Shown: piece by piece, positions 10,058-13,833 of the stretch
Layout: the number at the start of each line of letters is the position of its first letter
How positions within the stretch are numbered: the first letter of the stretch is position 1
NCBI RefSeq assembly: GCF_011045215.1
Contig: NZ_CP049201.1
Direction: 5' to 3' (one strand)
Length of the DNA: 64,000 nucleotides
From: Escherichia coli
Lineage (GTDB): Bacteria; Pseudomonadota; Gammaproteobacteria; Enterobacterales; Enterobacteriaceae
Notes under the pieces: generated by a model
Database searches by the model: none
What the model was told of the DNA's origin: nothing
The model's input: only the letters and a program-made list of their open reading frames with translations
Made by a program: the position numbers and the translations under genes

Positions 10058-11746
10058 TTAGTTCACATCACGACTCATTTTTTTCGCTCTCACCGGCATC
10101 CCATTTGCCACAAAATATCCCGCCGTGCTCCTCGGCAACGCTTCCTGTCCACGAATCATGTCCGCTATTTTCTCGCCAATCATAATTGTCGTGGCGTTCA
10201 AATTCCCGGTGATAATCTGCGGCATAATTGACGCATCCACCACGCGCAGGCCTTCCAGCCCATGCACGCGGCCTTCGCCGTCAACCACGGACATCTCGTC
10301 GTAGCCCATTTTGCAGGTACCGCACGGATGGAAGGCGGTTTCGGCGTGATTACGCACGAACTCATCGAGCTGCTCATCCGTCTGACATTCCGTGCCGGGG
10401 CTGATTTCGCGGCCACGATACTGATCCAGCGCTGGTTGATGCATGATCTCGCGGGTGATGCGAATTGCGTCGCGGAACTCCTGCCAGTCCTGCTCGTGCG
10501 ACATGTAGTTAAACAGAATCGCCGGATGCTGGTGCGGGTCGCGGGATTTAATCCGCACATGCCCACGGCTTGGCGAGCGCATCGATCCGACGTGGCACTG
10601 GAAGCCGTGCTCTTTCACTGCATTCGAGCCGTTATAGTTAATCGCTACTGGCAGGAAATGGTACTGAATATTCGGCCACGCAAATTCCTCTCGGCTGCGA
10701 ATAAATCCGCCTGCTTCAAAGTGGTTGCTGGCACCAACGCCGGTGCCGCCAAACAGCCACTCCGCACCGATTTTCGGCTGATTCCACCACTGCAGGGCAG
10801 GGTAGAGGGAAACCGGTTCTTTGCACTCATATTGCAGATACATCTCCAGGTGATCCTGAAGATTTTCGCCGACGCCGGGTAAATCATGCACCAGCGGAAT
10901 ATCAAACTCCGCCAGCAGTTCAGCGCTACCCACGCCGGAACGTTGCAGGATCTGCGGAGAGGCGATCGCACCTGCACATAACAGCACCTCTTTATTCGCT
11001 GTCGCGCGGGTTGGAATGGTGCTGTCGCCTTCCTGCCACTCGACGCCCACCGCGCGTTTGCCGTCAAAAATGATGTGATCGGTCATAGCGTGAGTACGAA
11101 TGGTCAGGTTAGGGCGCGATTTGGCCTGATCGAGATAACCGCGCGCGGTACTGGCGCGACGGCCCTGCGGCGTGACGGTGCGATCCATCGGGCCAAAACC
11201 TTCCTGCTGATAGCCGTTGAGATCGTCCGTGCGCGGGTAGCCTGCCTGCACGCCCGCTTCAATCATCGCTTCAAACAGCGGATTGACGCCGGGTTTGGAG
11301 GTGGTGACGCTCACCGGGCCATCACCGCCGTGATAGTCGTTATCACCAATATCGCGCGTCTCGGCCTTGCGATAGTAGGGCAGGCAATCGAGATAGCTCC
11401 AGTTCTCCAGGCCGGGTTCTTTCGCCCAGTTGTCGAGATCCAGCGCGTTGCCACGGATGTAGCACATGCCGTTGATCAGCGACGATCCACCCAGGCCTTT
11501 ACCGCGTCCGCACTCCATGCGGCGGTTATTCATAAACGGTTCAGGTTCCGTTTCATAGGCCCAGTTGTAGCGTTTACCCTGTAGCGGGAATGCCAGGGCA
11601 GCGGGCATCTGGGTGCGGAAGTCAAAGCGATAGTCCGGGCCGCCCGCTTCAAGCAGCAGCACGGAGGTATTCGGATCTTCAGTCAGACGGGTAGCGAGAA
11701 CGTTGCCGGCTGAGCCGGCACCAATAATGATGTAGTCAAATTGCAA
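10058..11746 (-). CDS. betA: Choline dehydrogenase (GMC oxidoreductase, FAD)
   Basis: ORF 10058..11791; N-terminal FAD fold [18 protein letters not shown]. The position matching the canonical N-terminus (xQFDYIIIG) is TTG here, 5 nt after AGGAGG. C-terminus ...[10 protein letters not shown]. Confidence 0.9.
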
Positions 11747-11759
11747 ATAAACCTCCTGG

Positions 11760-13232
11760 TTAGAATATGGACTGAAATTTAGCCATCTCAACCTGGATGG
11801 ACTTCACCTGGGTGTAACTCTGGAGCGTCATCACGCCGTTCTCGCGACCAATGCCGGAGTGTTTGTAGCCGCCAACGGGCATCTCTGCCGGGGATTCGCC
11901 CCAGGTGTTGATCCAGCAAATACCCGCTTCCAGCTGATGAATGACGCGATGCGCGCGGTTCAGGTCCGCCGTCACGATGCCCGCCGCCAGGCCGTAGTCG
12001 GTATCGTTAGCGCGGCGAATGACTTCGTCTTCCGACTCGTAGGTCAGAATGGACATCACTGGCCCGAAGATCTCTTCACGCACGATGGTCATATCGTCGC
12101 TGCAATCGGTGAACACTGTCGGTGCAACCCATGCGCCGTTATCGAAGCCATCGCCTTTCAGTACATCGCCGCCGCACAGTACGCGCGCGCCTTCCTCTTT
12201 GCCTTTGGCGATATAGCGCAGCACGTTATCGCGATGCGGGAAGCTGACCAGCGGGCCGAAGTTAGTTTGCGGATCGAAAACGTCGCCCGCGCGAATGCGC
12301 TCAACGCGCGCCAGAATTTTCTGCTCAAATGCGGCTTTGCATTTCGCCGGAACGAAGACGCGGGTGCCATTGGTACACACCTGACCGGAGCTGAAGAAGT
12401 TTGCCATCATGGCGATATCGGCGGCGAGATCGAGATCCGCATCATCGAAAACGATCAGCGGTGATTTACCGCCCAGTTCCATGGTCACTTCTTTCAGGGA
12501 AGAGGCCGCCGAGTTAGCCATCACTTTTTTGCCGCTGGCGACACCGCCGGTAAATGACACTTTGGCAATGCCCGGATGCTCGGTCAGATATTGCCCGGTC
12601 TCCGCGCCCACGCCCGGCAACACGTTAAATACGCCGTCCGGCAGGCCCGCTTCGCTGTAAATTTCAGCCAGCTTTAACGCGGTAAGCGGGGTGACTTCGC
12701 TCGGTTTGAAAATCATTGCGTTGCCTGCCGCCAGCGCCGGGGCGGATTTCCACAGGGCAATCTGGATCGGGTAGTTCCATGCGCCAATCCCCGCCACCAC
12801 GCCCAGCGGTTCGCGGCGGGTATAAACAAATGACGTCTCACGCAACGGGATCTGGCTGCCTTCCAGCGCCGGGATCAGCCCGGCGTAGTACTCCAGCACG
12901 TCCGCACCGGTAACGATATCGACGGTTGAGGTTTCCGAATATGCTTTTCCGGTATCGAGGGTTTCCAGTTTTGCGAGTTCGTCATTGCGTTCACGTAGAA
13001 TATCAACGGCCCGACGCAGAATACGCGAGCGTTCCATAGCGGTCATCGCCGCCCAGATTTTTTGCCCCTGTTGGGCACTCTTCACGGCGCGATCGACATC
13101 CTCGCGCCCGGCGGCCTGCACGGTCGCCAGCACGTTACCGTTGGCCGGGTTAATGGTCTCGAAGGTGCGACCGCTGGTGGCGGAGGTATAACCACCATGT
13201 ATATAAAGCTGCTGTTCTGCCATTCGGGACAT
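11760..13232 (-). CDS. betB: Betaine-aldehyde dehydrogenase (NAD-dependent ALDH)
   Basis: ORF 11760..13235; start at second ATG ([15 protein letters not shown]), 490 aa; ALDH catalytic motifs ([20 protein letters not shown]). Confidence 0.95.
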
Positions 13233-13245
13233 CACGTCTCCTCGG

Positions 13246-13833
13246 TTAATCGGTGGGTAAATGCTGAGTAATAAAGTGACGGGTCAGCGAGTGTGCGAGA
13301 GGTTTATCCAGCGGTTTGCCGCTCAGTGCCGCGCGCAGCCATAATCCGTCAATCAGCGCGGCAAGGCCGTAGCCCGCTTCCTGTGCCTGGTGGCGCGGCA
13401 ATTCGCGGCGAAACTCGCTCACCAGATTCGACAATAAGCGGCGGCTACTGACCTGCTGCAAGCGATAGAGCATCGGCTGATGCATACTGCTGGCCCAGAA
13501 CGCCAGCCAGGCTTTCATCGCCGCACTGCTCACCTGCGTTTCATCGAAGTTTCCGCCAACAATCGCCTGTAATCGCTGCTCTGCACTGCCCTGCGGAAGT
13601 GCATGTAATCGATTCAAAACCGCGTCACGCAGCTGACTGGTGATATCGCGCATGGTTGCTTCCAGCAGACCATTTTTGTCCCTGAAATAGTGGCTGATGA
13701 TCCCCGTAGAAACGCCTGCACGGCGGGCGATCTGCGCGATCGTTGCATCGTGCATGCCCACTTCATTTATTGCTTCCAGTGTGGCGTCGATCAGTTGTCT
13801 GCGCCGGATCGACTGCATCCCCAATTTGGGCAT
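13246..13833 (-). CDS. betI: TetR-family repressor BetI
   Basis: ORF 13246..13851; start at ATG 13833 ([24 protein letters not shown]), 195 aa; TetR HTH. Confidence 0.9.

Follow-up and report, generated by a model that had tools for sequence, protein, structure and literature searches.

The TTG start codon of betA and its Shine-Dalgarno context are conserved in Escherichia coli and close relatives

Background

In the 64,000-nucleotide stretch of Escherichia coli DNA analysed here (the window; contig NZ_CP049201.1), the choline dehydrogenase gene betA lies directly downstream of the betaine-aldehyde dehydrogenase gene betB and appears to begin with TTG. The question raised by this locus is whether the TTG is a variant of one strain, in which the ATG of other strains has been replaced at some cost to BetA translation, or the ordinary start of the gene. 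An earlier note on this DNA, taking betA of K-12 to start with ATG at this position, had favoured a start-codon polymorphism.

UUG is one of the three standard start codons of E. coli. It starts approximately 3% of E. coli genes and belongs to a class of codons that initiate at 10-100% of the level of AUG (bioRxiv 10.1101/063800), and an 8- to 12-fold reduction has been quoted for GTG or TTG (PMC11445065). GTG starts are conserved across genera of Enterobacteriaceae in lacI, cra and mlc, for which low expression with fitness consequences has been argued (PMC11445065). A literature search found no published work on the start codon, translation or N-terminus of betA. The TTG start is itself already known, in that it is recorded in reference annotations, and it is an ordinary UUG start led by a Shine-Dalgarno (SD) sequence.

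In this study, we report the anatomy of the betB-betA junction, a census of the betA start codon in complete E. coli genomes, its state in other genera, and the nucleotide-level conservation and predicted RNA structure of the region in which it lies.

Methods

The census sample comprised 5,426 complete E. coli genomes, which were searched with a 701-nt probe across the junction, a 55-mer carrying the first T of the TTG at position 28, and the 30-mer AACCAGGAGGTTTATTTGCAATTTGACTAC. Megablast needs an exact word of 28 bases and every 28-mer of the 55-mer includes position 28, so that a match of the 55-mer proves the presence of the T. Any 28-mer of the 30-mer spans the SD sequence, the spacer, the TTG and the next ten bases.

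Other species were surveyed by an N-terminal pattern search using one genome per species, which covered at least 120 loci, and the nearest in-frame start was located in each. Third codon positions were scanned along betB and betA over 1,044 codons in 12 sequences, which came from five named genera and one metagenome-assembled genome (MAG).

Results

The betB-betA junction in the window

Direct reading of the minus strand across the junction gave CAG TCC ATA TTC TAA, CC, AGGAGG, TTTAT and TTG, followed by CAA TTT GAC TAC ATC ATT ATT GGT GCC GGC TCA GCC GGC. The betB stop codon (TAA, positions 11760-11762, minus strand) lies 13 nt 5' of the betA start codon (TTG, 11744-11746, minus strand, read as fMet). 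The SD sequence AGGAGG (11752-11757, minus strand) is separated from the TTG by the 5 nt TTTAT (11751-11747), which agrees with the distance of about 5-9 nt expected of SD-led initiation. The earlier note had described a TTG placed 5 nt past AGGAGG and followed by the canonical N-terminus of BetA; the minus-strand reading confirmed the former, and translation bore out the latter, with the 14-residue match as described. The interval 11744-11757 given there corresponds exactly to the SD sequence through the start codon, the strand having gone unstated.

The betA coding sequence (10058-11746, minus strand) specifies 562 amino acids plus stop, as indicated by the open reading frame, by profile matches and by the annotation of E. 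coli PapM-32-1, which was the nearest found among complete E. coli genomes, at 99.2% identity over 12 kb. In PapM-32-1 the junction is identical and betA is annotated over the same span from the TTG. The betB coding sequence (11760-13232, minus strand; open reading frame and annotation) starts with ATG and encodes 490 amino acids. The context is that of the betIBA operon, since the open reading frames of the window and the PapM-32-1 annotation give betI-betB-betA with a divergent betT. At the betI-betB junction (13230-13248, minus strand), the betI stop TAA is followed by the 13 nt CC GAGGAG ACGTG and then by the betB ATG, a layout that matches the one between betB and betA. The betIBA operon as a whole may use translational coupling with fixed 13-nt spacers.

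Identity of BetA and its reading frame

The product scored 1031.8 bits against the NCBIfam equivalog TIGR01810 (cutoff 732.1) and 1001.4 bits against PRK02106 (cutoff 605). The TIGR01810 profile opens at DYIIIG, directly past the TTG start. The dinucleotide-binding motif GAGSAG (GXGXXG, FAD-binding; codons 9-14, positions 11705-11722, minus strand), seen on translation, begins eight residues past the TTG, and this placement excludes any downstream start for betA.

On the other side, no in-frame ATG occurs 5' of the TTG, as the frame is closed 20 codons upstream by a TGA at 11806-11804. The upstream in-frame ATG that the earlier note had considered, with the N-terminal extension that it would add, does not exist. 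The only other start-like codon between this TGA and the betA start is a TTG at 11791-11789. The sequence supports initiation at the TTG at 11746-11744 as the sole start that would keep the FAD-binding N-terminus.

The start codon within E. coli

The 701-nt probe matched 5,183 records from 5,179 of the 5,426 genomes, and the 55-mer matched exactly this set. Identity of the 55-mer extended over all 55 nt in 5,148 of the 5,183 records, and in the 35 records with less than 100% identity the first T of the TTG was still present. By the logic of this probe, ATG at the betA start was found in none of the 5,179 junction-bearing complete E. coli genomes. The 30-mer matched 5,177 records from 5,173 genomes, in which the SD sequence, spacer and TTG are exact; the six junction records that hold no exact 28-mer of this probe keep the first T of the TTG. 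Since 5,177 of 5,183 junction records match exactly over 28 bases or more, the arrangement of SD sequence, spacer and TTG is, as judged from this census, not a product of chance. Ten of the junction matches sit on plasmids. The remaining 247 of the 5,426 genomes gave no match to the junction, and the bet locus is presumably absent from them.

The same state was seen in individual reference genomes. The junction of K-12 MG1655 carries the identical sequence TAACCAGGAGGTTTATTTGCAATTTGAC, and over the segment running from the betB stop into the first codons of betA no difference from the window was seen in K-12 MG1655, in the O157 strain TR01 or in the divergent strain 06-00048. In these three genomes RefSeq places the betA start at locus position 1855, the T of the TTG, so that together with PapM-32-1 four E. 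coli genomes are annotated from this codon. RefSeq betA of K-12 and other E. coli (e.g. WP_001159094.1 in NZ_CP097882.1) shares the betB stop, SD sequence, spacer, TTG and operon context of the window. At the level of the genomes compared, TTG is universal at the betA start in E. coli, K-12 included. K-12 therefore does not have the ATG assumed in the earlier note, and the proposed start-codon polymorphism is refuted by a T in every one of the junction-bearing records; comparison with other strains shows TTG to be the common state in reference genomes.

A difference between K-12 and other strains was observed at the opposite end of the gene. BetA of the window has 562 amino acids, as in most of the non-K-12 strains sampled, whereas that of K-12 has 556. 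A run of seven A residues (10078-10084, minus strand), within GCG AAA AAA ATG AGT CGT GAT GTG AAC TAA, leads to the 562-residue form, and this run and protein length are common to the window, O157 TR01, 06-00048 and PapM-32-1. In K-12 MG1655 the run near the betA 3' end has six A residues and the frame shifts into a TGA, giving 556 amino acids. K-12 is thus the odd one among the sampled strains, at the C-terminus and not at the N-terminus.

The start codon in other genera

TTG was found at the homologous codon (TTG-CAx-TTT) in 13 of the 120 species listed. By their record labels, which may be wrong, the matches listed include several Enterobacter species, Lelliottia nimipressuralis, Pseudocitrobacter faecalis, Citrobacter sp. 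R56, Klebsiella oxytoca, a Klebsiella MAG, Raoultella ornithinolytica and one other MAG. All 13 species have a gap of 13-14 nt past the betB stop and the SD sequence (A/G)GGAGGT. A 13-nt gap is shared by E. coli, Enterobacter, Citrobacter, Lelliottia and Pseudocitrobacter; in Klebsiella and Raoultella it measures 14 nt, and the additional nucleotide there shifts the frame and leaves the homologous TTG as the only in-frame start candidate. In the TTG genera, only 56-66% of third positions in the first 200 codons of betA matched those of the window, with 80% in Pseudocitrobacter.

The other 107 species among the 120 listed have ATG at the betA start, and they include members of Trabulsiella, Pluralibacter, Pantoea, Erwinia, Kosakonia, Cedecea, Xenorhabdus, Pseudomonas, Halomonas/Vreelandella and Salinicola. 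Two of these have junctions of the short-spacer type, with ATG CAA TTT after a 12-nt gap in Trabulsiella odontotermitis (L077) and ATG GAA TTT after a 13-nt gap in Pluralibacter (L022, L106). Trabulsiella and Pluralibacter are natural ATG comparators of the same short-spacer junction.

The comparison of these genomes showed the TTG start, as a sequence feature, to be fixed across seven genera of core Enterobacteriaceae. By parsimony, we infer a single origin of the TTG near the base of the Escherichia-Klebsiella-Enterobacter-Citrobacter group, in which it has since been kept.

Some record names clash with the betA junction sequence they carry (L111, L112, L005, L008 and L100). The records named 'Pseudomonas sp. 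T1-3-2 plasmid p1' and 'Enterobacter ludwigii EnVs2' have Pantoea-type junctions, and the junctions of 'Enterobacter sp. Ag1' and 'Enterobacter sp. Cy-643' match Cedecea neteri. The record 'Enterobacter sp. Bisph1' has a long-spacer ATG junction, unlike true Enterobacter.

Synonymous constraint at the 3' end of betB

Mean pairwise identity at third positions was 0.63 over the 1,044 codons and 12 sequences of betB and betA. The maximum over the 3.1 kb was located in the last 20 or so codons of betB, where it reached 0.91 for the ten codons at -67 to -38 from the TTG (permutation p = 0.023 for this 10-codon peak). A 20-codon window spanning the junction gave a permutation p of 0.0006. As measured by third-position identity, synonymous change in the betB-betA region is suppressed most strongly in the betB 3' coding stretch at 11769-11813 (minus strand).

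Within the betB 3' end, the nucleotides TCC ATC CAG GTT GAG ATG G are identical in all 12 sequences. The same stretch is present in Pluralibacter, and in Trabulsiella it differs by one synonymous change, GTT to GTC. Relatives with spacers of 19-29 nt and an ATG start have the same betB residues encoded by varied codons.

Predicted RNA structure at the junction

Folding of 110 nt around the junction predicted a hairpin of -30.3 kcal/mol, for which the z-score, obtained from a single sequence, was a modest -2.1. The predicted hairpin (11744-11810, minus strand) pairs the 3' end of betB, ..AAG UCC AUC CAG GUU GAG AUG G.., with ..CCAUAUUCUAACC AGGAGG UUUAU UUG, and would occlude the SD sequence and the start codon. 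In this fold the partner of the SD sequence is UCC AUC C of the betB codons, and the UUG is likewise paired.

Pairing of the SD sequence was retained in a consensus fold of 14 sequences. Folds of the individual TTG-start species had 6-8 of the 9 scored bases upstream of the start, SD sequence included, in paired state in every species. The 14-sequence consensus fold contained no compensatory substitutions in the predicted hairpin, and a shuffle control did not separate the hairpin from chance, which it cannot do because the alignment columns are almost invariant. Since this betB arm also occurs with an ATG start, in Trabulsiella and Pluralibacter, the hairpin is not strictly tied to the TTG.

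Discussion

The results are best explained if the TTG of betA is the normal and ancestral start in E. coli and its close relatives and not a variant, a reading to which we assign a probability of about 0.85. The opposite proposal, that an ATG-to-TTG polymorphism relative to K-12 lowers BetA translation in this strain, retains practically no credence, given that K-12 MG1655 is annotated from TTG at the same position and that the census returned the T in all junction records, nearly all of them with the SD sequence, spacer and TTG exact. With the ATG/TTG polymorphism non-existent, there is no strain-specific effect on osmoprotection to infer. Lower translation of BetA, as the earlier note had suggested, would be plausible only as a general consequence of UUG being a weaker start than AUG. 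It is also very improbable that translation starts elsewhere, either 15 residues further upstream at the TTG at 11791-11789 or at a downstream in-frame codon. The upstream TTG is in frame and is conserved in the species with a 13-nt spacer, but it falls inside the coding part of betB and lacks an SD sequence at a suitable distance, the AGG of a CCAGG abutting it directly. Its frame is lost with the 14-nt spacer of Klebsiella and Raoultella, in which BetA is nonetheless conserved, and the 15-residue extension has no counterpart in the BetA profiles, which begin within about five positions of the start; this codon was rejected as the betA start. A downstream start, for its part, would cost the protein its GAGSAG motif (residues 9-14).

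A more serious alternative accepts the TTG as the true start and regards it as a neutral frozen accident, in which T and A would be interchangeable by drift in the presence of a strong SD sequence and coupling. The ATG starts of Trabulsiella (12-nt spacer) and Pluralibacter (13-nt spacer) show both states to be viable, and the predicted hairpin has no covariation, both of which favour drift. The alternative is nevertheless unlikely, though it deserves some weight, since not one T-to-A change was seen in 5,179 E. coli genomes and 13 further species, since the TTG has been kept in those 13 species while synonymous sites have diverged by 34-44% in most of them, and since nucleotide-level constraint peaks around the junction. 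The lack of T-to-A changes, taken with the constraint peak, points to purifying selection acting across the whole initiation region.

As a normal start maintained in this way, the TTG of betA can be compared with known cases. Like ordinary UUG-initiated genes of E. coli, betA has a near-cognate start for fMet-tRNA with an SD sequence at normal spacing; it differs from them in having an SD sequence of above-average strength (AGGAGGT) and a start placed 13 nt past an upstream stop. It resembles lacI, cra and mlc in that a non-ATG start is maintained across genera, but its product is an enzyme, where theirs are regulators, and its start codon is TTG in place of GTG. The start codon of lacI has switched repeatedly and in a non-monophyletic manner (PMC11445065), whereas that of betA is invariant in E. 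coli and fixed clade-wide.

The position of the start so close to the end of betB also suggests how a UUG could serve this gene. The distance between the betB stop and the betA start, 13 nt in the window and 12-14 nt across the clade, is within the few tens of nt expected of translationally coupled pairs. In polycistronic operons, adjacent cistrons can be coupled through a structure that occludes the SD sequence by pairing with the upstream coding region. The betB-betA pair is like such coupled pairs in its 13-nt gap and in the predicted pairing of the SD sequence and start with the constrained last codons of betB; it is unlike those with established support in that the coupling is predicted from sequence and the hairpin shows no covariation. 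Under such a mechanism, the weaker UUG would be offset by the near-consensus SD sequence and by translational coupling to betB. Ribosomes finishing betB would stop 13 nt upstream, open the hairpin that pairs the SD sequence and UUG, and reinitiate, so that BetA synthesis would be tied to the translation of betB and capped below it. BetA makes betaine aldehyde, and BetB must remove it. An output of BetA no higher than that of BetB would for this reason plausibly be advantageous, as it might avoid a build-up of betaine aldehyde.

The coupling hairpin at the betB-betA junction is a predicted structure. We propose tentatively, and at rather less than even odds, that the TTG, the strong SD sequence, the 13-nt gap and the constrained end of betB form a conserved coupling module of the Escherichia-Klebsiella-Enterobacter-Citrobacter group that would hold BetA output at or below that of BetB. 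The synonymous constraint could also stem from another cause; a ribosome standby site and an RNase site are examples.

Conclusions

The TTG start of betA says nothing particular about the strain from which the window comes. The nucleotide-level constraint at the 3' end of betB is the only mildly new element, and it makes translational coupling between betB and betA directly testable. A by-product of this analysis is thus a testable picture in which BetA synthesis is perhaps tied to the translation of betB. If this picture is true, the coupling module would keep betaine aldehyde from accumulating when the bet operon is induced.
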